This document shows positions 7,766 to 23,228 of a stretch of 29,670 nucleotides of DNA, piece after piece. Positions within the stretch are counted from its first letter, which is position 1. The number at the start of each line of letters is the position of its first letter. The notes under the pieces are model-generated. The model saw only the letters and a program-made list of their open reading frames with translations, made no database searches and had not been told where the DNA came from. Origin of the DNA: a virus (taxonomy: Duplodnaviria; Caudoviricetes); the IMG/VR virus record IMGVR_UViG_3300023256_000674, positions 1 to 29,670 of that record; one strand, 5' to 3'. The position numbers and the translations under genes are program-made.

Positions 7766-9145
7766 TTAAGCTACAGTAGTTGTACTACTTGTAGACGAAC
7801 TTGTTGAACTTGAACTTGAACTACTCGTTGAACTAGAAGTACTAGACGAAGTTGAGCTTGATGAGCTAGAACTTGTTGAACTAGAAGTACTTGAACTAGA
7901 TGAACTTGAAGTTGACGATGAAGTTGAGCTACTTGAGCTTGAACTTGTAGAACTAGACGAACTAGAACTTGTCGAACTTGAAGTTGATGAACTCGATGAG
8001 CTAGATGTTGACGAACTAGAGCTTGATGAAGTTGAACTTGAAGTACTTGAACTTGTCGAACTTGAAGTTGATGAGGTAGTTGAACTAGAAGTACTTGAAC
8101 TTGTTGAACTTGAACTTGATGAACTTGTCGAACTTGTAGTACTAGAACTTGTTGAACTACTCGTAGATGAACTAGATGAACTTGAAGTACTAGAACTTGA
8201 TGATGAACTTGTTGAACTAGATGAACTTGATGAAGTTGAACTTGTAGTAGATGTAGTATAAACAGGATAGCTACTTGGAGTAAATAAGAAACCCCTTACA
8301 GCAATTAAAGCTGAACCAGTAGCGGCATCAGCTCTTCCTCTAATTCTAATTCTACAATGTTCCTTTACAATTATTTCTTGACGTAAATGAAACGACTCAG
8401 CATTCATCTCATTGATATTACCAATAGGATAAAATCTCTCTATATAATAAGTCATTCCACCAATTGTTACTGGCTCTTGAATATACAAACCAGTAATAAC
8501 TTCATTGTCATTTGCAGTACCATCAGCTAAAGATTTTTCTATATCAGTAATTACAAAATATTTGTCATCTGGTACATAGTAATAACCATTCATTGATTCT
8601 GTGTATATCTTTAAAATTCTTAAATATAAAGTACCACCACCAGTTCCTTGCAAATCAATATTTCCAGAAGGAATTATAATAGTTGTAGATGTAAATTTAA
8701 CAATTTCTATTCTAATTGGTAACAATATATCTGTTGCTAAAACAGTATTAGGTGTAGTACCAGCTAAAAGTACATCTTGATAATCTTCTTCCCAACTAGT
8801 ATTAAGATAATGAACTCTTACTACTTCAGCACCGAATCCACCAAGTTGGTCTGCATTATCATCAGAAACAATTTCTAATGTAATAGCTGCCGCAGGTGCT
8901 ACATAATTATTATCTGCATTGTAACAACCTATATCTTCCCAAGTAGTGCCAATAGCACCATTTCTTCCAAGTATTTTTACACCTTTACCATCAAGATATA
9001 ATCTTCCACCTTCGGAAACACTTTGACTTACTCTGTTATGGTCAAATCCTTGTTCAACAAAACCATTTGCAACGTTTACAACTGTTCCATCCCTTTGAAA
9101 TCTTTTACCATTCTGAGGACTCATATTTTGATAATCATCTGACAT
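7766..9145 (-). CDS. Putative virion (head decoration or fibre) protein with a C-terminal 161-aa pure Ser/Thr mucin-like tract
   Basis: Second gene after the major capsid gene. Beta-rich, Gly/Thr/Ala-rich N-terminal ~296 aa, no obvious signal peptide or TM segment; aa 297-457 are only S or T. The virion role is inferred from position. Confidence 0.6.
   Translation of the reverse strand: MSDDYQNMSPQNGKRFQRDGTVVNVANGFVEQGFDHNRVSQSVSEGGRLYLDGKGVKILGRNGAIGTTWEDIGCYNADNNYVAPAAAITLEIVSDDNADQLGGFGAEVVRVHYLNTSWEEDYQDVLLAGTTPNTVLATDILLPIRIEIVKFTSTTIIIPSGNIDLQGTGGGTLYLRILKIYTESMNGYYYVPDDKYFVITDIEKSLADGTANDNEVITGLYIQEPVTIGGMTYYIERFYPIGNINEMNAESFHLRQEIIVKEHCRIRIRGRADAATGSALIAVRGFLFTPSSYPVYTTSTTSSTSSSSSSSTSSSSSSSTSSSSSSSTSSSTSSSTTSSTSSSSSSSTSSSTSSSTTSSTSSSTSSSTSSSTSSSSSSSTSSSSSSSTSSSTSSSSSSSTSSSSSSSTSSSTSSSSSSSTSSSTSSSSSSSTSSSTSSSTSSSSSSSTSSSTSSTTTVA
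7775..8257 (-). repeat. Low-complexity coding repeat (TSSS/TSSSSSSS)n
   Basis: 161 codons, all Ser or Thr. Thr recurs mostly every 4 or 8 residues; TCN and AGY codons are interleaved. Confidence 0.95.
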
Positions 9146-9393: not shown

Positions 9394-9465
9394 AATGTTT
9401 ATTTTATTGACTTTTACCTTATTCTGTAACGTTCTGTTACAAGACGTTACGAAGTGTTGTAAGAA

Positions 9466-9510
9466 GAGAAGTTAAGTTAAGAGAAGTTAAGTTAAGTTAA
9501 GTTAAGAGAA
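9466..9510. repeat. Pentamer tandem array GAGAA/GTTAA x9
   Basis: gagaa gttaa gttaa gagaa gttaa gttaa gttaa gttaa gagaa; intergenic. Confidence 0.9.
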
Positions 9511-9699: not shown

Positions 9700-9855
9700 C
9701 TTTTCTATGTTATCGTAAGAGTTCTTTATCTCTTACTTCACTAGTTTTATATATATCTAGTGGTCGGACTATATCATCAGTTCTAACAATAAAATACAAA
9801 AAAGTAATAAACAAAAAGTTTACTACTTTATACATAACTATTTTAAATTTTTATA

Positions 9856-10548
9856 CTAAATCATTTTTTGAATAAAATATTTTATCCAATCTTTTCTATT
9901 AAAATTAGTTTTACTATGACATTTACGGCAAAGACTTATAAGATTATTCTCTTGATTATTTTTTTTATTATAATCAATATGATGAATTGGTAACTTATAT
10001 CCTAAATCCTTTTGTAATTTATTACATTCTTGGCAGGTATAATTATATCTTTTCCTAATTTTTTCTTTTAATTGATTATTAAATTCTATACCATAAGGTT
10101 CATAACTTGAACCATTATTCCAATTAGGATTATTACTACCTTTCCACAAAGGATTTTCTTTACCTTTATTCCAAGGAATTTTTCCTAACATTCCTTTAGG
10201 ATTTTGTCTTCCTTGTTTATACTGCATTTTAACTCTTGTGCTAATTTTTCTTCTTTCTTCTGGATTTGAAAATCTTTTTATAGTTCCTTGTTTAATATTT
10301 TCTATAGCTTCTGGTTTAAAGCATTTTCCATATTTTCTTTTATTATTTGAATATCTAATACTTTTTGATTTATTATCCTTATTTATTTTTTCTTTAGAAG
10401 AATTACTGCATTTAGTAGTGCAATAAAGACAAGGGTCAGAATTAAATCGTTTACCCGTAACTTCAAATTCATTTCCACAATTATTACAAATTAAGATATA
10501 TCTATACCCATTTCCAGACTTCCATTGTTTTTTTATTTTAGGTTTCAT
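9856..10548 (-). CDS. Intron-encoded HNH homing endonuclease (zinc finger, NUMOD-like region, HNH)
   Basis: CQEC..LPIHHIDYNKKNNQENNLISLCRKCHSKT; N-terminal CNNC..YCTTKC; IPWNKG. Likely start is ATG at 10548, because the ORF-track start at 10653 lies in the ribozyme core. Confidence 0.88.
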   Translation of the reverse strand: MKPKIKKQWKSGNGYRYILICNNCGNEFEVTGKRFNSDPCLYCTTKCSNSSKEKINKDNKSKSIRYSNNKRKYGKCFKPEAIENIKQGTIKRFSNPEERRKISTRVKMQYKQGRQNPKGMLGKIPWNKGKENPLWKGSNNPNWNNGSSYEPYGIEFNNQLKEKIRKRYNYTCQECNKLQKDLGYKLPIHHIDYNKKNNQENNLISLCRKCHSKTNFNRKDWIKYFIQKMI

Positions 10549-10554
10549 ATAGGT

Positions 10555-10583
10555 ATTATAGCATAATTTCAATAAAAATGCAA
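10555..10583 (-). promoter_or_regulatory. Intron-internal sigma70-type promoter for the HNH gene (probably leaderless)
   Basis: TTGCAT-17 nt-TATAAT with TGn extension; the ATG starts 7 nt after the -10 box. Confidence 0.7.
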
Positions 10584-10800
10584 TAGTAAATGTATAAAGC
10601 GTTGTGTTTGTGTATTTTATTGTCAATGAACAGTAGGATGTTCGTGGATTCATTACTGTCCTATTAGGACTCGGAATCTAGTCTCTGAACCTTCTAAGCC
10701 ATTACTGGCAAAGCTAGGCTGCTGATTGTCTTTAAATCTGACCATAACGATTTAAAGATTTTCCAGCAATTTATCCTATTTATACTGCGCTCACTCTTTA

Positions 10801-11520: not shown

Positions 11521-12533
11521 CAATTATATTATCGTAATTTTTTTAATTATTACTTCTATATGTTTCCATATAGTTTAGACTATATCATTATCTATTTACA
11601 TTATTTAATATTATTTTTTCACATTCAATTAAATTTTTTATAATTTGTGTACCAGTAAATCTTATAAATTTCCAACCTTCTTTTTCAATATTGCTTTGTC
11701 TAATCTTATCTTGTTTTTTTCTTTTATTATGCCAATATTCTCCATCGCATTCTATAATAAGATTTGAATTGTTTATAACAAAATCTACACAATATCTTAA
11801 TATTTTAAAATCATATTTATACTTAATATTATTTTTTATAAGTATATTTTCTATGATTTTTTCAATATTTGTTTTTTTACCTTTGAAATATATTAATGAA
11901 TTTTTAAGGACATCTGGATTTTCTATTAATAACTTTTTTCTAGCATTGCTCATATTTAATTTAGCTTTATCAGTTTTTGGTATTCCTTTCATAGCATCTA
12001 TTCTTCTTTTTCTGATAATTGGATTTTTCCAATTCTCTTTATTTGCAATACTAATTTTTATTCTATTTTCTTTATTTTTCATTGCATTATTTTTAATAAG
12101 CTTTTTTCTAACATCTTTACGTTTAGCAGGATTTTTATTTCCTGTTATACTTGGTCTTTTTTGACCTCTTTGCTTATTAACATATTTTGCAACTCTTTCA
12201 TCAGTTTCTACAGTTAATCCTTTATTCCAAGGTATTTGTTTTTTGAATGTCATATAATTAGTAGTGTTAATTATTTTAAGGGCTAATAAATAGACACTAC
12301 CTATTTATTACTTACGTCCTAATGGAACCCATAATATTAAATTGTCAATGTAACAGATATTCGGCGCTCGTGGGATTATTATATTCTCTATTTAGAGTTT
12401 CAAATCCTAGTCGTTGCACCTTCCAAAAACATTTAATTCTTGGCTTGGCTCAGGATTGTCCTTTTCAGGAGTTTCCCTGAATTCACCGAATTTACTATAT
12501 ATGTTTACACACATATGGGGCTATATTTCCTTA
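11521..12533 (-). mobile_element. Group I intron 1 in the capsid gene (1013 nt, IA-like) with a Vsr/DUF559-type endonuclease in P8
   Basis: 5' splice site GGUGGGU|UAAGG with P1 partner UAGCCC; P10 AGGAAAUA/UAUUUCCU; P3 AUUCGGUG/CGCCGAAU; P4 UUCAGG/CCUGAG; R GCAACGACUAG; S GAUAUAGUCU; an extra P7.1-type stem; omega-G at 11521. Confidence 0.93.
11588..12253 (-). CDS. Intron-encoded putative homing endonuclease (NUMOD-like DNA-binding region plus Vsr/DUF559-like nuclease)
   Basis: YCVDFV..LIIECDGEYWH..QDKIRQ..EGWKFIRF; basic N-terminus with IPWNKG and NPAK. The stop codon overlaps the P8/J8-7 region. Confidence 0.85.
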   Translation of the reverse strand: MTFKKQIPWNKGLTVETDERVAKYVNKQRGQKRPSITGNKNPAKRKDVRKKLIKNNAMKNKENRIKISIANKENWKNPIIRKRRIDAMKGIPKTDKAKLNMSNARKKLLIENPDVLKNSLIYFKGKKTNIEKIIENILIKNNIKYKYDFKILRYCVDFVINNSNLIIECDGEYWHNKRKKQDKIRQSNIEKEGWKFIRFTGTQIIKNLIECEKIILNNVNR

Positions 12534-12872: not shown

Positions 12873-15047
12873 TTACTTTCTATTTAGTTTATTAAGTGCA
12901 AAATTTGAATTTTTTGCAATTGTTTTCAAAGCACGTAGTACAATGTCATTAGCTTCAACTAATTTTTGTTTAACTACTTTCTTTGGTTCTCGACCTTTAA
13001 CTTCACCATTTTCTTTAGCTTTTACTGGAGTTGGAATAGTTTTATCACCTTCTGGTGTTTCACTTAAATCCAAAAGTTTCTCCAGAGCTATGGCTGCATT
13101 ATTCAAAGCCTCAACGGCTTTTGTAATTATTATTTTATTTTTCTTAGATATAACACGTCCTACTTTTTCTTCTATATCTATTATTACTGACTTTGTAACT
13201 TCACTTGAAATACTATTAACTAATTCTCTTTGTTTTTCTATTTTATCTAAACTCTTTAATAAAGCATCACCTATTTCTATTTCATCATCTTCAACTATCA
13301 TCTTAGCAAAATCCACTAATTCTTTAATATAAGCACCAGTATATCCTTTTGTTTTATCTAATATATTCTTTAATAATTTTTTATCAATTTTTCCAGCCCA
13401 TTTATTAATCATATCTTTTCTTATTTTTCTATTAGGAGCTTTAAAATCTAATACATCATGGAAACGTCCAGGTCTATCTAATAATGCTTTTGGTAATTGT
13501 TCTGGGAAATTAGTAGTTAATACTGTTAACATACCTTTATTTTCAGATATACCATCCATTTCAGTTTTTAACAAATCAACAGCAGAGCCTTTAAGCCAAG
13601 TATCTATATCTTCTATAAACAATATGCTTGGTGCTAAATCTCTAGCTAATTTAAATGATAATGCTAATGCTTCAACTACACCAATCTTATAAAAGTCTTT
13701 AGATGATACCCAAACAAAAGTTGAATCTGCTTTATCCATCATTACTTTTCCAGACATTGTTTTTCCAGTTCCTGGTTCTCCTAAGAACAACATTCCTCTA
13801 TTAGATGATTCACTCTTATTCTTATTAAGTTGACTAACTGATTTTTTTATAGAATTTTTTATATCATCATCTAAAATAACATCATCCCAATCTTTCTTAG
13901 TATTATCTATAAACTCACCTCTTAAAGAAAACTTTTCTCCCTTTAAATAATTATTTTCTTTTACCCAATTATGTACATCTTTTAATAATCCTTTATTATA
14001 ATCCTTATCCTTAAGAGTGGTTACAATGTTTACCTTTAGTCCGAACCAAGTTGGACTAACTTTAACAGCAATTCCATCACCATCTTTATTTTCATAAAAA
14101 TTAACTCCTTCGACTAAGAAATCATCTGACTTTTTAGAGTTTAATTTAATTACTTCATAAATTGGTGGCGATTCAGTTCCATTCCATTCGAAATTTCTAG
14201 TATCTTTTAATTTAAAATCACTAAATATATTTTTTAAACTAGCAAGATAACTACCTAATAATGGACTTGGTATTAAAAAACCATTTTTAAATATTTCTTT
14301 TACTTTGCAATCTAAGAACTTTGTGAATAAACTATATTCGAAAGTTGAAGGTGGCATTTCTACACTATCTACATCAAATGCTTTAGATAATGATTTATTC
14401 CATCTTATAAACTTTTTAACTATTTTTTCTTTTGGTTTCTTTTCTTTAGATAATTTTTTAGGTTTTTTAATAGTTTCTTTTGGTTCTTCTTCTTCTTCTT
14501 TTTTTGGTAGAGCATCTGTATTAGTTTTTGAATCACCACAACAACCTTTTTCTTCAATCCATTTATTAACTTTTTCTCCTAATTCTTTTTCTTCTACTTC
14601 ATCTAAATTTTCAGCACTTTTTTCTAAACTTTTTAATGAAGTTAAAGCACTAGCATTAGCAGGAACAGCAACAGCAGATACTTCTAACAATTCATTCTTT
14701 TGTCCATCTTCCCTAGCTGGTATAAAACCAACGCTCCAAGCCTTCAATATTTGTGGTTTTGATGTAAACATTGCTTCTATATTTCTTGCTAATTCTGTAA
14801 ATTTATGAAATATTGGTTCGAATATTAATTTTTTACCTTCAACTCTCATATTTTTAGCAATACCTATAGTAAATTGTGGACGATAATCATGACCAGCTTG
14901 TAATACTGGATTCTTTTTAAAGTTTTTTAAATCCCAATCATCAACTTTTAGACTATCACCAACTCTATCAATACTTTCATCTGAAGCAATAGCAACTAAT
15001 TTACCATCTACAATTTCGGTTAATGCTTCTATGTGTTTTGTTTTCAT
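12873..15047 (-). CDS. HK97-type prohead protease fused to an AAA+ ATPase
   Basis: N-terminal ASDESIDRVGD..NPVLQAGHD..WSVGF..LLEVSAVAVPAN; Walker A GEPGTGKT, Walker B ILFIEDID, SRH TTNFPEQLPKALLDRPGRF. Confidence 0.9.
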   Translation of the reverse strand: MKTKHIEALTEIVDGKLVAIASDESIDRVGDSLKVDDWDLKNFKKNPVLQAGHDYRPQFTIGIAKNMRVEGKKLIFEPIFHKFTELARNIEAMFTSKPQILKAWSVGFIPAREDGQKNELLEVSAVAVPANASALTSLKSLEKSAENLDEVEEKELGEKVNKWIEEKGCCGDSKTNTDALPKKEEEEEPKETIKKPKKLSKEKKPKEKIVKKFIRWNKSLSKAFDVDSVEMPPSTFEYSLFTKFLDCKVKEIFKNGFLIPSPLLGSYLASLKNIFSDFKLKDTRNFEWNGTESPPIYEVIKLNSKKSDDFLVEGVNFYENKDGDGIAVKVSPTWFGLKVNIVTTLKDKDYNKGLLKDVHNWVKENNYLKGEKFSLRGEFIDNTKKDWDDVILDDDIKNSIKKSVSQLNKNKSESSNRGMLFLGEPGTGKTMSGKVMMDKADSTFVWVSSKDFYKIGVVEALALSFKLARDLAPSILFIEDIDTWLKGSAVDLLKTEMDGISENKGMLTVLTTNFPEQLPKALLDRPGRFHDVLDFKAPNRKIRKDMINKWAGKIDKKLLKNILDKTKGYTGAYIKELVDFAKMIVEDDEIEIGDALLKSLDKIEKQRELVNSISSEVTKSVIIDIEEKVGRVISKKNKIIITKAVEALNNAAIALEKLLDLSETPEGDKTIPTPVKAKENGEVKGREPKKVVKQKLVEANDIVLRALKTIAKNSNFALNKLNRK

Positions 15048-15098: not shown

Positions 15099-18000
15099 TT
15101 ATTTATTGCTTTTAATAGACCTACCTTCAATAAATATAGGAGCTAACTGACATCTACAATTATGCACAACAAAACCTTTTGCAATATAACTTTCATCTTC
15201 TTTAACTGAAAAATTATAAAGCATCTTAGGTTTTTTTGGTTTCCATTGTTTTGCACTATCAACAACAACATTAATTGTTCTGTATTTATCATTATGATTA
15301 GCCATAACCAACTTAACCTCATCTGCAATTGATTGTAAATTAGAATTTATTTGTTCATCTAAAAATCTTAAAACAATAAATCCATTATCTTCAATTTCTT
15401 TCTGTCTTTCTTTATCTTTTTCTATATCTTTATGCCAAAAATTACCATCACATTCTATTAAAATATTAGTATCCTTAACTCTAAAATCTGCAAAATAATA
15501 TCTATCTCTTCCAAGAGAATCTACCTCTTTTTTCTTAATAGGATATTGTGGTTCTATTTCAATATTATTTTTAGTCAAAATCCATCCAGTTTTTTCTTCT
15601 AACCAAGTTTTACCATAATTTTTTGAACCTAATGACTTTGCTGCTTTTTTTCTAATTTCAGGATTATTTAATTTAAACTCTTTAATATTTTTTCTAGCTT
15701 CTTTTAATTGTTTATAATTCCAATCTCTATCACCATTTCTCCATTGATTTTTCATACTTTTACTAATTTTTTTTGACATTAATAAACGATGTTCTTCACT
15801 TGCCCATTGTTTTTTAGTTGTAGCCTTACTACTACAAGTATGATTACAATATTTTTGAAAATAAGGTATTAATTCATTACAATATTGACAATGATTTGCT
15901 AACATTTCTAATTTATCACCTTTTTTTATCTTATTAGCTTCAACCCATTTTCCATTACATAAAATTGGATGCTCAGATGTTAATGTTAAAGATTCCTGCA
16001 TTCTTGTAGTTTTTTTATTCTTTTTATTTATTCCAAAATTAAATTTAATTGTTGTTGTATCAGGAATCTGTTTTGGTGTTCTTATTAATTTTGTAACTTT
16101 TCTAAATCTCTTTTTATGTGTTAAAACTAAATCATCTACTTTAATTTTTCCTATTTGTTTCCATCCTTTAGAAGTAAATATTGGTATTTGTGGGTCTATA
16201 AAACAATTTGTATGGAGAGGTGGGTATTCTGTTGTGTCATAATCCAATGTCATTTTTCCACCATCTGAACCAGTAATTTCAACATCTTTATCAAAAAATG
16301 ATGAACCAAGTGGTACAATTGCACCAGTCATTGGAGCACAAAATTGACAAGCATCTGGTTCTACATTCCATTCTTTTGCTTCAACTACACCAGATTCTAC
16401 AAATGCTCGTTCTGTAGCAGCAGAATTATATCTAACAGTTTCAGTTCTTGCTATTGCTTCAGCTCTACTTTTATTAGCAACATCAAATATATTATTTATT
16501 CTTTTTCCAATTTGTGGTATAGACTCATTATTTTTTAATCCTTCAGCTACTTGATTTTTAATAGCAATATTAGTTGTCTTAGTTACGGAATTTGAAAACT
16601 TTCTTGTTTCAGCTTTAAGTAATGTTTGTACTTCTTCAGTTGAAGTATCCATAACCATATCAACACCTAAAAATGTAAATGTTTCATCAGCACTTTCTTT
16701 AAATAACTCTTCAAGTACTGGCATAACCACAGCTATTGTTATTGCCGCTTCTTCTACTTTATTCAATTGTAAACCTGATATATCTACACTAGCCTTAATT
16801 GCTTTTTTCTTGTTTAAATTTTTAAGAACTTTTTTTCTTTGTTGTTCAAATACTTTTTTTTGTTTATCACGTACTGGCTTTATAAATTGTCTTGATAAAG
16901 CATCTTTTACTTTCCAAAAATGTATTTTTTTATTATCAGACCATCTAATGATTTTCTTTTTCACATTATATATTTCTTTTTTAAGCATTTCCTTTACCTT
17001 TTCTTTCATTTCATTTTTAGATTTTTTAATCCTTTTTGCTTTCTCTTTATGTCCTGGATTTCTAGCATTTAATCTTTTTATTCTTATATTTGATATAATA
17101 TTTTTATCTTTTTTACCTTTAACTTTTAATTCTACAAATTTAACAGACTCATGTGCCATACCCATATCACTATCAATTGGTATAAGATTAAATGGTTTAT
17201 AAATTGAATCTCCTCCTTCGACTGGTGGCAATCCTTCTGCTAAACGAACTTCATTTGTAGTAAGCCATTTATCAATACCTTCTGTATAATTTTTTAATTT
17301 TACTTCTTCATCTTCTGGTATTGGATTAGTAAAATCTAAAAACATTTCTTCAGAACCAGTAAACATTGGAACATAAAACTCATTTAATTGTTCTATAATT
17401 CTTTCCATCTTTGGTTGAATAGTCCAACGTGCAAAAATATAATTAGCAGCTTTTGCCGAATTTCCACTCGCAGTTATTTTGCCATTACGTCTTGTAATAA
17501 AAATATGATTAGGAACTTCAAAACACCAAACCTTACCACTATAATTTATTTCTTCTTTACAATCTCTTAATTGATGTTCTTTTCTATTACTTATATTAAC
17601 AACATATAATATTTTTCTATTTTCACGAGTATCGTGATGAACCTTTATAGAAACTGAATAACCAAGTTTTAATGCAATTTCTTGTACATCATCAGCTAAT
17701 TGAATTGATGTTGTCGCATAACATCCACTATTTCTATCTTCTCTTTTATCCCAACTACCATCACCCAACATTAAAGCATCAAATAATATTCTTAATTGTC
17801 TTTTGTTTAATTTTTTAAATTGTAATGGAATTTTTTTTATATCACATCCATCTCCACAATTTTCTCTAAACCAACTATTAACTGCTTTCCCATAAACATT
17901 CCAATATGTAGCACCACTTTCAATTTTATATTCAGTATGAGAAAAACCAGTTTTCTTTAAACAATTTCTCATTTTAGAAATATTTTCTTCACTTTTTTTC

Positions 18001-19406
18001 TGACAAATAGTATGAACATATCTAAAATTTGGAGAAGTTTCTTTTAACAATCCACCTTCTGATAAAAAATATCCTAAATATTCTAAAAAAACATCACCAT
18101 TAATTTTAACTTCATCTGATAATGTCTTATTATTTGCAGTCAATCCTTTTTTTACTTTTGGAATTATAAAATCATTTAATTCTTCTATCTTATCATCATC
18201 ATAATTAAAATTAGCTTTAATATGTATTTCACTGTTATTAACTTTTCCAATTTCTTCTATTTTATATTCTTTTATTTTTTGTGTTCTATACCATATTTTA
18301 TGATTAGGTGTAATTAATACATCAACATTTTTTGTTTTCATATGTACCATTTTGCCATCATAATCATAAACAAATTTTTCTTTAGGTATATGATACTCTA
18401 TTTTATTTGTATCTTTATTAACAGTAGCTATCTTTTCATTCTTTTTTACTTCCCAATATTTTTTAAATCCATTTTCAGTTAAAACTTCAGTATCTTCTGA
18501 ATGACAAGCATAATTCACTCCTTCAGTTTGTGCTAATACTGCTTTTGGAACACGGAAAATACCAAATATCTTATCTCTTGTAAATCTTTGTTGTTCCAAG
18601 AAGTCCATATCTTTTTGAGTGGTAGCAAATTTTTCAAGTTTCATATCACCAAATAAAACCATTAATTGTTGTGATTTTTTTGTTCCTTTATATTGTTCTT
18701 CTATACTATGCTTTAAAACTTTTTTTTGTTCATCATCCATTTGAACCACATTGACATTCAAAATAGAATCTGGTCTTGCAGAATTTTCAAAAAATTTACT
18801 ATTCCATTCTTCAGCATTAATATCTACATCTACTGACCTTGCAGCAGCTTCTAATGTTCCTAATCCTCTAAATGGTCTTGCTGGGTCTGGAAATTTTATA
18901 AATATAATATTTTCTTTTGGTATAGTTATTTTTTTACCCATACCAACTTCATATCTATAACCACTAATAATAGTTTTTTTATCAGCTATTGGAGTTAACT
19001 TACTTGGGTCTAAAAAGAAAATACCAGTAACACCACTAGCATCTTTTTCTAAATACCAAGGAGATTCTCCAGTTAATTCTAAATAAGCAGAAGTTAACCA
19101 AAAATGGTCAAATTTTGTAGTAAAATCATTGACTTTATATAAAGTATCTAAAATTGGACTATCCGTAACTTCTTCAATTTTATCACCTTTTCTTTTATAT
19201 AATTTTATATCTATTTGAGCTATCTCATCAGCTATAGCAGATGTACATGCAAAAACCCATCCCCTCATTTCTCTCAATAATATTTTCTTTTTTGCATATC
19301 CTAATTCATATTGTCCAGCACCATACAATTCAATACCTGCTGGATTTTTTTTAGAAACTTCTTTTTTTCCAGTGAAAGCATTGAAAATATTTTTTAAATA
19401 TCCCAT
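15099..19406 (-). CDS. HK97-family portal fused to a MuF/SPP1 gp7-like head morphogenesis domain, with two inteins (spliced about 737 aa)
   Basis: Likely start ATG at 19406 (MGYLK). Portal motifs WVFACTSAIA, LELTGESPW, FRGLGTLEAA, FFENSARP, DMDFLE..IFRVP; MuF motifs RAEAIARTET, KEW, C..C, PPLHTN/CRC. Confidence 0.9.
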   Translation of the reverse strand: MGYLKNIFNAFTGKKEVSKKNPAGIELYGAGQYELGYAKKKILLREMRGWVFACTSAIADEIAQIDIKLYKRKGDKIEEVTDSPILDTLYKVNDFTTKFDHFWLTSAYLELTGESPWYLEKDASGVTGIFFLDPSKLTPIADKKTIISGYRYEVGMGKKITIPKENIIFIKFPDPARPFRGLGTLEAAARSVDVDINAEEWNSKFFENSARPDSILNVNVVQMDDEQKKVLKHSIEEQYKGTKKSQQLMVLFGDMKLEKFATTQKDMDFLEQQRFTRDKIFGIFRVPKAVLAQTEGVNYACHSEDTEVLTENGFKKYWEVKKNEKIATVNKDTNKIEYHIPKEKFVYDYDGKMVHMKTKNVDVLITPNHKIWYRTQKIKEYKIEEIGKVNNSEIHIKANFNYDDDKIEELNDFIIPKVKKGLTANNKTLSDEVKINGDVFLEYLGYFLSEGGLLKETSPNFRYVHTICQKKSEENISKMRNCLKKTGFSHTEYKIESGATYWNVYGKAVNSWFRENCGDGCDIKKIPLQFKKLNKRQLRILFDALMLGDGSWDKREDRNSGCYATTSIQLADDVQEIALKLGYSVSIKVHHDTRENRKILYVVNISNRKEHQLRDCKEEINYSGKVWCFEVPNHIFITRRNGKITASGNSAKAANYIFARWTIQPKMERIIEQLNEFYVPMFTGSEEMFLDFTNPIPEDEEVKLKNYTEGIDKWLTTNEVRLAEGLPPVEGGDSIYKPFNLIPIDSDMGMAHESVKFVELKVKGKKDKNIISNIRIKRLNARNPGHKEKAKRIKKSKNEMKEKVKEMLKKEIYNVKKKIIRWSDNKKIHFWKVKDALSRQFIKPVRDKQKKVFEQQRKKVLKNLNKKKAIKASVDISGLQLNKVEEAAITIAVVMPVLEELFKESADETFTFLGVDMVMDTSTEEVQTLLKAETRKFSNSVTKTTNIAIKNQVAEGLKNNESIPQIGKRINNIFDVANKSRAEAIARTETVRYNSAATERAFVESGVVEAKEWNVEPDACQFCAPMTGAIVPLGSSFFDKDVEITGSDGGKMTLDYDTTEYPPLHTNCFIDPQIPIFTSKGWKQIGKIKVDDLVLTHKKRFRKVTKLIRTPKQIPDTTTIKFNFGINKKNKKTTRMQESLTLTSEHPILCNGKWVEANKIKKGDKLEMLANHCQYCNELIPYFQKYCNHTCSSKATTKKQWASEEHRLLMSKKISKSMKNQWRNGDRDWNYKQLKEARKNIKEFKLNNPEIRKKAAKSLGSKNYGKTWLEEKTGWILTKNNIEIEPQYPIKKKEVDSLGRDRYYFADFRVKDTNILIECDGNFWHKDIEKDKERQKEIEDNGFIVLRFLDEQINSNLQSIADEVKLVMANHNDKYRTINVVVDSAKQWKPKKPKMLYNFSVKEDESYIAKGFVVHNCRCQLAPIFIEGRSIKSNK
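15159..16205 (-). mobile_element. Intein in the MuF domain (349 aa) carrying a Vsr/DUF559-like nuclease
   Basis: PPLHTN|CFIDPQIPIFTSKG..TSEHPIL..YNFSVKEDESYIAKGFVVHN|CRC; internal FADFRV..IECDGNFWH..DKERQ..GFIVLRF. Confidence 0.92.
17460..18506 (-). mobile_element. Intein in the portal (349 aa) with a LAGLIDADG endonuclease
   Basis: GVNYA|CHSEDTEVLTENG..TPNHKI..YLGYFLSEG..FDALMLGDG..VWCFEVPNHIFITRRNGKITASGN|SAKA. Confidence 0.92.
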
Positions 19407-19425
19407 ATTTTTAAAAGTAAATAAC

Positions 19426-19454
19426 AAAAAAACATCTTATCATACGATAAAATG
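19426..19454 (-). terminator. Intrinsic terminator just upstream of the portal gene
   Basis: CAUUUUAUC-guau-GAUAAGAUG followed by UUUUUUUGUU, ending about 20 nt before the portal ATG. The stem is AU-rich. Confidence 0.65.
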
Positions 19455-19880
19455 GTTCGTAAACCTAAGACGTTATCATTATCACAGCTTCGTAAAGCCG
19501 AGAACTTATAATTTCGTAAAACTATAAAGTTCGTCTATAAATTTTTTATAATTAACTTTCAGCTGAGGAGTAGTTTAAAGGATGATAGTCCTATACCTAC
19601 TCCCATTTATATACACGTTATTAGAGTAGTCTACGGTTTTGCTAGATATTTACTAAATATACTTCATAAATATCCACTTAAGTTTGACCGTGAGGTGTTC
19701 TAAAACACCACTACTCTATATCACTTGCCATCAGCTCTAATGCCGATAGGGTCTGACGACCCGCAAGGAATAAAATCAGTAAGAGCTAGTCGTTATATAT
19801 CTGTTGCGTGAAAATATAACTAACATCACTCTAAAGTTGCAACTGAAAATTAACTATTTTATATTTTGTATTTTATATAC
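19426..19880 (-). ncRNA. Large structured RNA or leader of unknown class
   Basis: An 18-bp closing helix (19840-19857 with 19548-19565) encloses a multi-stem domain, followed by three UUUACGAA hairpins. Several G.U pairs form only on the minus strand. Bounded by a promoter and a terminator. Confidence 0.72.
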
Positions 19881-19884
19881 CTCT

Positions 19885-19913
19885 ATTATACACCCAAAAC
19901 GATATAATGTCAA
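19885..19913 (-). promoter_or_regulatory. Perfect-consensus sigma70 promoter
   Basis: TTGACA-ttatatcgttttgggtg (17 nt)-TATAAT. Confidence 0.88.
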
Positions 19914-19919
19914 TACCTT

Positions 19920-20114
19920 TTACATTTTATTGAGTGTATTTCTTATATTATCTTTATTTAATATCATTAAAACATCCCCTCTGTATTTAACATTACAATT
20001 TTTACACATATATTCTTTCTTGCTATCAAGGTGTGGCTTGCTAGTTTTTGTAATTATATTATTACAACTTTTTCTTGGACAATACCAAATATATACTATT
20101 CTTTTATTACGCAT
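19920..20114 (-). CDS. Small zinc-ribbon protein
   Basis: Likely start ATG at 20114 (MRNKRIVYIWYCPRKSC..CKNC), overlapping the upstream stop; Cx4C..CxxC. Confidence 0.6.
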   Translation of the reverse strand: MRNKRIVYIWYCPRKSCNNIITKTSKPHLDSKKEYMCKNCNVKYRGDVLMILNKDNIRNTLNKM

Positions 20115-22053
20115 TTTTTTTCTTGATAATTTCAGCAATAAGTGTCTTAAGTTCATTAATTGATAATTTAACATTATATTTTTCATTTAATTCTTTTTTT
20201 CTTAATTCTATTTCTAATTGTCTATTTTGTGGATTTATAAATTTAACTAAGTCATCTAAGTCATAAGCAACTGGATAACCCATAGCCCAACCTATATAAC
20301 TTTTATTATCACTTTTATATTTCCATTTACCTTTTTTACTTTTTGGATTTAAAATAAAATCAACTTTATATTTTTTCAAATCATTAGCCAATATATCCCA
20401 ATTAAATTTGATTGTTTCAAATTCTATTTTTTTACAACCAGTTGGTAATCTATAATCAGCATTTGAAATAACAATAAGTTTTAATTTATGTTTTGCTAAA
20501 AAATTTATTACTGGGTCTAACATACAAAAATTATGTCCATAACCAAACCAAGCAACTACTTTTGCATCTTCATTATTTTGAATAATTTGATTAAATAATT
20601 TCAAATCTATTCTATCTGGAATATAAATAACTGGCTTATCTGTAAAATGTTTTATATCTTCTGCCAATTTTTTTGTTGCACAAGTAATAGCATCAACCTC
20701 TTCAATCATAGCTTTTGTTTGATAACCCCAATGCAAAAAATCGGGGTCACAATTATGAACTATAATACCATCAACAATATAACTGTTATCATCTTCTACT
20801 TCAAAATTATAAACAGTTTCAATTTTATTATTATCAGTAATTGATTTTACTGGATGTGTATAATAACCATTTGATTCTATAACTTCTACATTTTTAGAAA
20901 CCAAACTATTCCAATAATCAATTTTACATTTTTTATATTTTTTTATATTAGTTAAATTATAAAATTTAATAGATTCTATTGGATTAAGTTGTATTCTCCA
21001 TTGTGGCTTACCATAATATTCTCTACCATCTTTATGAATAAATTTATAACTATCACCTTCTCTTTTATGATAATTCATACTAACATTTATTCCACAATCT
21101 CTAAATAATTGCCAAACAGAATAAGCTAATTTCTTTGATATAGTCGATACACTTATACCATTAATATCATTACAATAACCATCACCAGCAATATACCCTT
21201 CTAAAAAATCTAATTTCTCTTCTTTAGTAGCATTAAATATTCTAGCATAAGGAACTTTTTTATCTTTAGATTTGAACTTATCTTTTAATAATTCAACCCA
21301 ATGTTTAGAACTAAAATATACCCTACCAGTATTATCTTTTTCATAATAAGAACTATTAAAACCAAAATTATGAATAATATTTATAATCTTTTTTCTATGT
21401 TCAATTTCATTTTTATGCATAGCAAAACTAACTTGATGGTCACTACAAGAACCTTCTGCACAATAATAACCAGTAAACCAAGCCTCATCTTTATATGCAG
21501 TAAGTTCTTTTTCATTTATATCTCTATTCTTATGAGTAATTAATGTACTACCATTATTTTTTCCTTTAGTAATAATCAAATTATCAACATTAACCCAATT
21601 AAAATTATCAAAAACTTTTCCTTTTTTATTATTATATTTATAATTAGCAGAATATACTGGGTGATTACCAGTTAATTTAATAGAACATAATCCACTAGCT
21701 TTAACATTTTTTGTTTTATCATTTCTAACAAAAATATTTTTAATTTTTTTAAATCTACCTTTATGAGTTAAAATATAATCATTTTCTATGATATCTTTAG
21801 CATATTTCCAACCATCTAAAGTAAAAATTAATGAATTGCCAGATACACATAAATCTAAAATTTTTACTCCTTTAAATAATTTAGCGTGTTTAGGATAATA
21901 AACTTTTTGATAAATTATAGCATCATATTTTTGTCCATACTTAAACTCTTCTGCTTCTTTCCAATAATTTAATAACCAATCACAACGAATAGTTGAACTG
22001 CCAGCCTCATCCATACCTTCAAATTTTTTAAATGAGAATATTCCTATCTTCAT
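20107..22053 (-). CDS. GT-B glycosyltransferase-like protein with a LAGLIDADG intein (spliced about 282 aa)
   Basis: Extein reads GSSTIR..YDAIIYQK..ILDL/CDPD..VDAITCATKKLAE..YIPDRID..VAWFGY..KSDNK..MGYPV. Confidence 0.72.
   Translation of the reverse strand: MKIGIFSFKKFEGMDEAGSSTIRCDWLLNYWKEAEEFKYGQKYDAIIYQKVYYPKHAKLFKGVKILDLCVSGNSLIFTLDGWKYAKDIIENDYILTHKGRFKKIKNIFVRNDKTKNVKASGLCSIKLTGNHPVYSANYKYNNKKGKVFDNFNWVNVDNLIITKGKNNGSTLITHKNRDINEKELTAYKDEAWFTGYYCAEGSCSDHQVSFAMHKNEIEHRKKIINIIHNFGFNSSYYEKDNTGRVYFSSKHWVELLKDKFKSKDKKVPYARIFNATKEEKLDFLEGYIAGDGYCNDINGISVSTISKKLAYSVWQLFRDCGINVSMNYHKREGDSYKFIHKDGREYYGKPQWRIQLNPIESIKFYNLTNIKKYKKCKIDYWNSLVSKNVEVIESNGYYTHPVKSITDNNKIETVYNFEVEDDNSYIVDGIIVHNCDPDFLHWGYQTKAMIEEVDAITCATKKLAEDIKHFTDKPVIYIPDRIDLKLFNQIIQNNEDAKVVAWFGYGHNFCMLDPVINFLAKHKLKLIVISNADYRLPTGCKKIEFETIKFNWDILANDLKKYKVDFILNPKSKKGKWKYKSDNKSYIGWAMGYPVAYDLDDLVKFINPQNRQLEIELRKKELNEKYNVKLSINELKTLIAEIIKKKNA
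20752..21849 (-). mobile_element. Intein (366 aa) with a LAGLIDADG endonuclease
   Basis: ILDL|CVSGNSLIFTLDG..TGNHPV..WFTGYYCAEG..FLEGYIAGDG..VYNFEVEDDNSYIVDGIIVHN|CDPD. Confidence 0.93.
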
Positions 22054-22241
22054 ATTTTTATTTTATTTGTTAATATTTTTCTTAATGTCTTCCAACTTTC
22101 GATAAAATTGTTATCCATCATATATTGATTTTCAAATATAAATTTATGTTTTTTCTTAATATTATTATTCTTTATATTTCTTAATTTTTCATAAGCAATT
22201 CTTCTTTCAGTTTTCTTTTTTTTAGTTTTCATATTATTCAT
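22050..22241 (-). CDS. Small basic hypothetical protein
   Basis: Overlaps both neighbours in operon fashion; no motif recognised. Confidence 0.5.
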   Translation of the reverse strand: MNNMKTKKKKTERRIAYEKLRNIKNNNIKKKHKFIFENQYMMDNNFIESWKTLRKILTNKIKI

Positions 22242-22821
22242 AATTATATTTTTTTAAATTTTTATTATATTTATCGACATCACGTTTATCATCAAAATCT
22301 TGAGTATAGTCTTTTATATATTCAAATTCTCTTTTAAGATAATCTTTTCTTTTACCACCTAAGTAAGCTTGTGCAAAATCCCATAAATTGGATTTAACAA
22401 CATCAACTTTAATAGCAATAATTAATTCTTTAATTACTTTTTCAAATACAGACTCTTTAAAAACTACAGCATATATCTCTTCCCAATTACCAAATATTCT
22501 AAATTCATCATTACATTTTAATATTTTATTTACTAAATTATCTGAATATAAAACATCACCTAATAAAACAATTACTTTATCTTTCCATAATTCTTTAGTA
22601 TTTAATAATGTTTCACAACCACATCTTCCTTTTTCTGGAATAAAATAATTACCAATTTTTAAATTATTGTCATCAGTCACGATAGTAATATCTTCGCCTT
22701 TTTCTTTAAACTGCCTAATAGTTCTTTTTAATAATGGTTCTCCTTTGATATCTATTAGTTGTTTAATACCAGATAAATCCCATCTATCTGTTTTTCCAGT
22801 ACATAAAGATAATATTAACAT
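22234..22821 (-). CDS. NTP-transferase (GT-A-fold nucleotidyl/cytidylyltransferase, LicC/MobA-like)
   Basis: ILSLCTGKTDRW..KQLIDIKGEPLLKRTI, VLLGDV, QDFDD. Confidence 0.72.
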   Translation of the reverse strand: MLILSLCTGKTDRWDLSGIKQLIDIKGEPLLKRTIRQFKEKGEDITIVTDDNNLKIGNYFIPEKGRCGCETLLNTKELWKDKVIVLLGDVLYSDNLVNKILKCNDEFRIFGNWEEIYAVVFKESVFEKVIKELIIAIKVDVVKSNLWDFAQAYLGGKRKDYLKREFEYIKDYTQDFDDKRDVDKYNKNLKKYNYE

Positions 22822-23228
22822 ATGTTTATAATCTTATTTTTTATTTTAGTAGAAGATTGAGGAATATAATATTTTGTTATAATTATTTTACCACCATAGC
22901 TCTTAACATATTCATTGGCTGGTTGTTCTGGATGATTATCACTTTCCATTAATATATGTGGTTTTATTCTTTTAATATTATTTAAAGGAGAATATTCTTT
23001 TTGGATAATTACTTTATTAACATACTTACAAGATTCAAGTATAACTTTTCTTTCTTTATAAGATATTATTGGCTTTGATTTTTTTTCCATACAAGCCCTA
23101 TTACTTAAACATCCAACAATTAAATAATCACAATATTTTTTAGCATTTTGTAAAGCTTTTAAATGACCTATATGAAATAAATCAGCAACTAAATAAGCAT
23201 AACCTATAATCATTTTAAATCCTTCCAA
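22815..23228 (-). CDS. HIGH-motif cytidylyltransferase (TagD/RfaE-II-like)
   Basis: ADLFHIGHLKAL..AKKYCDYLIVG..KPIISYKER..SSTKIK. Confidence 0.88.
   Translation of the reverse strand: MEGFKMIIGYAYLVADLFHIGHLKALQNAKKYCDYLIVGCLSNRACMEKKSKPIISYKERKVILESCKYVNKVIIQKEYSPLNNIKRIKPHILMESDNHPEQPANEYVKSYGGKIIITKYYIPQSSTKIKNKIINIC

Follow-up and report, generated by a model that had tools for sequence, protein, structure and literature searches.

The locus studied here raises the question of what a large structured RNA does directly behind a strong promoter and ahead of the head genes of a phage. The window, that is the whole stretch of DNA analysed (29,670 nt; IMG/VR record IMGVR_UViG_3300023256_000674, Caudoviricetes), is a phage fragment which is present unchanged inside a 49.5-kb contig of about 60% completeness. 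On its minus strand, a sigma-70 promoter of the sequence TTGACA-17-TATAAT (19885..19913) matches the consensus at 12 of 12 positions, and its transcription start is expected near 19878. A first-pass annotation had proposed an RNA domain of about 310 nt at 19548..19857 (minus strand) that starts about 20 nt after the +1 position of a perfect promoter, and had suggested an antiterminator, a riboswitch, a ribozyme or a portal-associated RNA as its possible nature. The distance was found to be ~21 nt, in agreement with the proposal, and no ORF runs across the domain on either strand. If transcribed from this consensus promoter, the domain would probably be made in large amounts.

The first gene of the head operon, located 3′ of the domain, encodes an HK97-type portal fused to a Mu-F-like head domain and contains two inteins (15099..19406, minus strand; Pfam PF04860, PF04233, PF14890, PF14528, and PF04480). 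It is followed by a gene for a protease-AAA fusion and by an intron-split capsid gene. The fusion (12873-15047, minus strand) combines a head maturation protease domain and an AAA ATPase in a single ORF of 724 aa, which is an unusual architecture. The major capsid gene is interrupted by two group I introns (~11521-12533 and ~9706-10795, minus strand), whose P/Q/R/S words were recognised by eye and which carry a DUF559 endonuclease ORF and an HNH endonuclease ORF. On the 5′ side, the domain is preceded by a small zinc-ribbon ORF and numerous glycosyl- and nucleotide-sugar genes; the upstream gene (20107-22053) also contains an intein. In another phage, L225, the portal gene (1208-2500) has an intein at a different site, near residue 53. 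The host probably belongs to the Patescibacteria. This assignment is based on the portal matches, three of the best four among 24 genome loci being located in Patescibacteria genomes (50%, 44%, and 37% identity) and the remaining one in a Pacearchaeota bin (46%), and on ORF starts without Shine-Dalgarno sequences, none of which was seen by eye at the 24 starts inspected.

The predicted minimum free energy (MFE) of the domain on the minus strand was -98.4 kcal/mol compared to -65.8 ± 4.6 kcal/mol for 100 dinucleotide shuffles (z -7.08), none of which folded as well. In a rough scan of the minus strand with 8 shuffles per window, the best-folding of 394 windows of 150 nt (z -10.1) was located inside the domain. 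The opposite strand folded less well (-76.0 kcal/mol, z -4.2), indicating a bias toward the strand of the promoter, and 11 of the 106 MFE pairs were G.U pairs. As stated in the earlier annotation, the domain is richer in GC (34.8%) than its flanks (25.5% and 22.9%). Overall, an 18-bp closing helix, P1 (5′ strand 19840..19857, 3′ strand 19548..19565), encloses four arms, two of which are three-way junctions. P1 contains three G.U pairs, as previously described, and showed a pair probability of ~0.9 or more in the full transcript. Arm A (19782..19832; z -2.2 alone) was present in both the MFE and the centroid structure and consists of AGAGU/GCUCU, GUU/GAC, and GUUAUAU/AUAUAAC with a CACG-bearing loop. 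Arm B (19719..19772; pair probability ~0.9; z -4.5 alone) is a three-way junction closed by CUUGC/GCAAG with the hairpins GGGUC-GUCA-GACCC and UAUCGGC/GCUGAUG, and arm C (19622..19718; z -4.2 alone) is a three-way junction closed by UAGAGUAGU/ACUACUCUA, whose two hairpins are GGUGUU-UUAG-AACACC and a long, interrupted one. Arm D (19567..19604; z -3.0 alone) is formed by GGAGUAG/CUACUCC with an inner hairpin; its helix sequence also occurs in arm C, so that swapped pairings between arms C and D are possible.

The coordinates and helices annotated before were thus present in the sequence, with one correction. CUUGC/GCAAG, which had been regarded as a possible pseudoknot, appears in the ensemble as a nested helix (p ~0.9) at the base of a three-way junction. 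The annotated GCUCU/AGAGC represents a competing helix: GCUCU pairs with AGAGU (19832-19828; p ~0.8), and the position of AGAGC coincides in part with another hairpin. The candidates for long-range contacts are CACG/CGUG, comprising only 4 bp, and CUGAU/GUCAG (5 bp), which had not been noted earlier. Dimerisation driven by the unpaired palindrome ACUUAAGU was rejected as a candidate feature, as 19 of 100 shuffles contained such a palindrome, and a resemblance of P1 to one of the two host 16S processing stems looked at was set aside. As a prediction, the elaborate fold was confirmed; because no homolog was found (see below), it is known from a single sequence. The state of the helices bears on the idea that the domain is a functionless piece of a once-structured RNA that was captured by recombination and is still retained. 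Its occurrence in one lineage only and the absence of homologs in every search agree with such a relic, but P1 and all four arms are intact, and the mismatches on the transcribed strand are G.U rather than A.C, which points to recent selection on the RNA. We consider a relic highly improbable.

At gathering thresholds, Rfam gave no match to the domain in the window. With E values up to 10 over positions 19300-20000, four weak and unrelated matches were obtained, none of them to GOLLD/ROOL, manA, or RF00028. ARAGORN predicted no genes, and no tRNA, tmRNA, RNase P, SRP, or small ribozyme family was found at E values up to 10, which bears out the earlier statement that the domain cannot be matched to tRNA, tmRNA, RNase P, or SRP. 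Riboswitch, put, and EAR families likewise gave no Rfam match to the domain. Its description as a structured RNA outside the Rfam families and behind a strong promoter therefore held. This result is not proof of novelty, because the two group I introns of the capsid gene were missed by Rfam too, and the negative result for RF00028 at E values up to 10 comes from the same search that was blind to these two real introns. In the literature, in which subscription papers were thinly covered, no description of this RNA was found. The candidate RNAs in the accessible part of an IMG/VR survey (PMC10690425) have at most 151 nt and could thus include the portal leader described below, not the whole domain.

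Homologs were searched for in several collections. In four overlapping, portal-guided locus sets, blastn and nhmmer searches of the portal loci (among them sets of 54 loci, 102 loci, and 33 metagenome loci) matched only the copies of the same phage; the best non-self nhmmer match in the 102-locus set had an E value of 0.08. Six pattern scans of viral_contigs returned the domain itself and unrelated matches only, the latter accounting for 13 of 14, 5 of 6 (judged by fold only), 34 of 35, 10 of 11, and 4 of 5 matches in five scans and for 118 of the 119 matches listed (~140 in all) in another. The best model match in the scan with 10 of 11 unrelated matches (15.4 bits, E 0.004) was located away from the pattern and was taken as chance. 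GenBank phages and plasmids contained short chance pieces only, and BLAST found no match in 401 genomes from the phylum to which G003 belongs or in 301 genomes from that of G006. A covariance model built from the single sequence (R1, covering 161 of the 310 nt) gave no match in two sets of 150 genomes and only the self-match in 94 sources. The genomes searched are incomplete samples, and since such searches detect only identical words or closely similar sequences, they could have overlooked a diverged family. One of the scans picked up by chance a conserved structured stretch of ~100 nt that is common to three unrelated phages (L319, L320, and L321).

The phages with the most similar portals gave a clearer picture. 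The gap ahead of the portal gene comprises 513 nt in the window and 184-187 nt in L003 (portal 79% identical), L219 and L220 (76%), and L221 (69%). All four phages have kept the promoter and a hairpin leader of ~115 nt and lack the 310-nt domain, which is absent from the relatives with 60-79% identical portals. Since these relatives keep promoter and leader without it, the domain is, judged by the sequence comparison, a lineage-specific insert. In a quick tree, in which the row of L226 was mis-cut owing to an intein and the root was unusable, the window grouped with L338 (identical to L003; SH-aLRT 92) among insert-free lineages, which makes a gain of the domain the simplest reading. In a broader set of 69 distinct AT-rich slots, 56 had a promoter-like site (10 of 12 positions or better) in this gap. 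The median distance from the -35 region to the portal ATG was 153.5 nt, and a distance of at least 279 nt occurred in only 5 of the 56 slots.

By the same comparison, this head module can do without the domain, which is strong evidence that the latter is neither a packaging RNA nor an obligate regulator. Neither the suggestion of a portal-associated RNA nor that of an element needed for head-gene expression was sustained, as the relatives with 76-79% identical portals do without the domain while keeping promoter and leader. The former suggestion would correspond to a prohead RNA like the pRNA of phi29, binding the portal or capsid during packaging. The domain adjoins the portal gene and has three-way junctions and loops that might kiss; on the other hand, it is not conserved with the portal, the portal is of the HK97 type, and the Rfam search was blank. 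A pRNA-like role is thus scarcely credible. To our knowledge, pRNA is known only for phi29-like motors.

The gap between promoter and leader is occupied by different RNAs in other phages. The earlier annotation overlooked that this site holds other RNAs elsewhere. In L022, the slot contains two tandem manA-like copies (RF01745; E 2.8e-6 and 0.002, both below the gathering threshold). They are located at 2509-2674 and 2702-2893 and have closing helices of 23-24 bp; an identical sequence is present in L195, a Pacearchaeota bin, and the host groups from which manA is described in the accessible part of 10.64898/2026.07.01.735769 do not include that of this pair. The slot of L369 contains a tRNA with a CAT anticodon and an odd D-arm (908-978), which scored above gathering in Rfam (43 bits) and was missed by ARAGORN. 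L225 carries a different orphan RNA of 164 nt (919-1082; z -5.6) directly 5′ of the first leader hairpin; it is also present in L226, L345, and L346 and had no match in Rfam or among GenBank phages. In L278, an array of 21 tRNA genes (28-1996) ends just 5′ of the promoter, and a folded stretch of ~200 nt without Rfam match follows the promoter (~2060-2260). The helices at the ends of the non-tRNA cargo RNAs comprise 18, 23, and 24 bp and have few or no interruptions. The sequences of these closing helices were not significantly alike (p 0.05-0.64), and a sequence common to them was rejected as a candidate feature. The majority of the slots are empty, and no more than three further kinds of cargo were recognised. 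This distribution suggests that such RNAs are interchangeable and non-essential late cargo, like phage tRNAs.

The element that is conserved at this site is the portal leader (19428..19540, minus strand), which lies outside the coordinates of the first-pass annotation and was overlooked there. Its three hairpins comprise two with UACG caps and a long, interrupted one, after which there is a U7 tract (19432-19426). In an alignment of nine sequences, 93% of the cells were paired and both sides were changed in 19 of 35 pairs, a covariation that none of 500 shuffles reached; slid controls were 32-48% paired. The leader is conserved in the window and in ten other loci (L003, L219, L221, L222, L223, L225, L232, L341, L256, and L261) and belongs to no Rfam family. 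A covariance model of the leader (R2) detected two further portal leaders at E values below 1e-4 and two weak ones in 62 sources, no second copy in the phage, and none in 150 genomes of the host class. Similar tetraloops occur in host rRNA flanks, so that the leader loops may be generic caps. According to our own loose criterion, 55 of 72 AT-rich slots have a hairpin with U-tract before the portal ATG, compared to 1 of 25 other ORF starts. A strict scan of positions 17000-23000 returned no terminators, so that a terminator function of the leader is putative and a discrete RNA of 450 nt hypothetical; a promoter-to-U-tract unit of ~450 nt appears plausible. As a candidate control element of the head operon, the leader could act by attenuation or on translation.

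This arrangement invites a reading in which the domain is an accessory antiterminator or riboswitch that acts in cis and raises read-through of the leader hairpin into the head operon, in the manner of put, EAR, or conAn. Like put of HK022, EAR, and conAn2, it is a structured RNA that closely follows a promoter and precedes a long operon in which a terminator-like hairpin is present, and the frequent occurrence of hairpin and U-tract before the portal ATG fits as well. In the full transcript, the last helix of the leader still forms with the domain present, its probability dropping from ~0.98 to ~0.83. Duplexes of the domain with either strand of this helix were, however, no better than those of shuffles (p 0.36 and 0.97), which weakened the cis-acting idea of the first-pass annotation. 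According to the accessible part of PMC8191782, put and EAR are cis-acting and apparently need no partner, so that pairing with the terminator would not be required, and the domain may be a tertiary-type switch. Against a cis-acting element stand the relatives that have the same operon, leader, and U-tract without the domain, the unrelated RNAs that fill the slot elsewhere, and the lack of a match to any riboswitch, put, or EAR family. We consider such a function quite unlikely.

Stabilising 5′ structures of mRNAs are well established, and the domain could be a large folded cap that shields the head mRNA from host nucleases and raises capsid output. It would form the 5′ end of the transcript for the most needed proteins, and its closing helix is long. 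This explanation is very unlikely, as ~21 unpaired nucleotides precede P1 and a single hairpin would do, the leader already having three; in our judgement, five arms and two three-way junctions exceed the needs of such a role.

The apparent recent gain of the domain is also compatible with a selfish or decayed catalytic RNA, such as an intron remnant, a ribozyme, or a non-autonomous mobile element, that settled where it does no harm, downstream of a strong promoter. Selfish elements abound in the genome: inteins are present in the portal gene and the upstream gene, and the capsid gene contains two group I introns. The blank Rfam result carries little weight for a class of which the real members in the window were missed. 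Moreover, the words AACGACUAG and UGAUAUAG are common to the domain and the first capsid intron, where they belong to the R and S regions, and occur in the order R then S. Group I introns have a P3-P7 core, in which GACUA pairs with UAGUC at the guanosine site, together with a P4-P6 domain, as in the introns of the window itself. In the domain, UGAUAUAG is followed by AG and not by UC, so that no P7 helix and no guanosine site are formed, and between the would-be P3 strands there is a short hairpin only, into which no P4-P6 domain fits. GACUA is present, but its partner reads UAGAG, and a group I remnant was rejected. In addition, the domain is located outside any gene, and a scan with the word pair gave 10 non-self matches, of which three were ordinary group I introns, found via P9, and seven were chance. 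The end of a MITE or IS element was rejected as well, because the mismatches of P1 are all G.U on one strand and no flanking duplication is present. There is one full copy in the 49.5-kb contig, with no ORF and with neither a clear target-site duplication nor a terminal repeat at the DNA level. Altogether, a selfish origin appears unlikely.

The reading we prefer is that the domain is a trans-acting passenger RNA, optionally inserted between promoter and leader, to which we assign a rough probability of 0.55. It is based on the position of the domain, its predicted fold, its absence from the nearest relatives, and the presence of other RNAs in the same slot; an optional passenger is likely rather than a switch or packaging part needed by the head genes. 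Evidence against it is that the manA-like matches are below threshold, that most slots are empty, and that no homologs were found. In this mechanism, the sigma-70 polymerase of the host would transcribe the domain as the 5′ part of an RNA of ~450 nt, which would often end at the leader hairpin and U-tract, read-through giving the head mRNA. The 18-bp closing helix would allow the domain to fold independently of the leader, and host RNase III could clip it free. P1 might thus serve as a stalk for processing by RNase III; this enzyme was found in all five Patescibacteria genomes tested, so that the domain could be released by cleavage. Control of the head genes would rest with the conserved leader, possibly together with the zinc-ribbon protein encoded upstream.

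The function of such a passenger is suggested by analogy only. Although outside every family tested, the domain probably works like other ornate RNAs of phages. In the accessible parts of 10.1101/2024.12.08.627333 and PMC5737381, GOLLD and ROOL are described as phage-borne, tRNA-linked, abundant, and cage-forming RNAs, and ROOL as abundant yet non-essential in one strain. The domain resembles them as a phage-borne, multi-junction RNA without obvious protein partner. In this phage group, tRNAs are found within the slot (L369) or on its flank (L278). It differs in its size of 310 nt (513 nt for the whole gap) compared to about 580 nt for ROOL and over 800 nt for GOLLD, as given in the parts of these sources consulted, in matching neither covariance model, and in the absence of tRNA genes from the 49.5-kb contig (~60% complete). 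The RNA manA of phages forms closed oligomers in vitro, 8- to 60-mers according to the accessible part of 10.64898/2026.07.01.735769. Copies resembling it occupy the same slot in the related phage L022, whereas the domain had no match to RF01745 at E values up to 10 in a search that does find these copies, lacks the conserved CUGAAUAA core of manA and the word GUGRCUGAAUAA present in both L022 copies, and is ~120 nt longer.

By this analogy, the domain might form a compact, probably multimeric RNA-only particle that, during infection, would sequester or distract host proteins of RNA binding, translation, or RNA-targeting defence, a speculative role that we hold to be rather improbable. Somewhat less doubtful, and still tentative, is a wider proposal in which the domain would be the first member of an undescribed class of ornate RNAs in Patescibacteria phages, its long-range contacts (CACG/CGUG, CUGAU/GUCAG, and the swappable helices of arms C and D) would build an RNA-only particle or a catalyst, and the promoter-leader gap would be an exchangeable expression slot beside an undescribed control module of zinc ribbon and leader. 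GOLLD, ROOL, and manA have striking structures, and their function is not known. The slot offers natural pairs of phages with and without such cargo and a cheap route to further RNAs of this kind, and the 310-nt domain is a ready target for cryo-EM and probing.

The small zinc-ribbon ORF (19923..20111, minus strand) encodes a protein of about 60 aa with a CxxxxC...CxxC pattern and ends just 5′ of the promoter. In 43 of 69 distinct slots, one case being probably spurious, the 950 nt upstream of the portal ATG encoded a similar cysteine pattern. The gene is kept even where the upstream gene encodes a terminase. The zinc-ribbon proteins tested had no significant family and no match to Com; the best lead was PHROG 6417, annotated as 'translational regulator', with an E value of 0.13 for the protein of L021. 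Com of phage Mu, as described in the accessible part of the literature, is a small protein with a zinc finger and attaches to mom mRNA, the translation of which it activates. The likeness to the Com/mom system concerns the leader and not the domain, namely a small zinc-finger gene adjoining a structured initiation region; the difference is that the proteins found here do not match the Com family, and the lead of a Com identity was set aside. The zinc-ribbon protein may be a Com-like protein that binds the leader; the 310-nt domain is not considered its partner. From the covarying leader and the zinc-ribbon gene, a model that can be tested is obtained for how the head genes are controlled in phages of uncultured Patescibacteria.

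Two further features of the window are located downstream of the capsid gene. Short tandem repeats of the TTAAC type follow the terminator of this gene (9460-9500, minus strand). An ORF of 459 aa (7766-9145, minus strand), situated among many glycosyltransferase genes and without match in Pfam or PHROG, has a tail of ~160 residues composed only of Ser and Thr, and likely encodes a heavily glycosylated virion protein.
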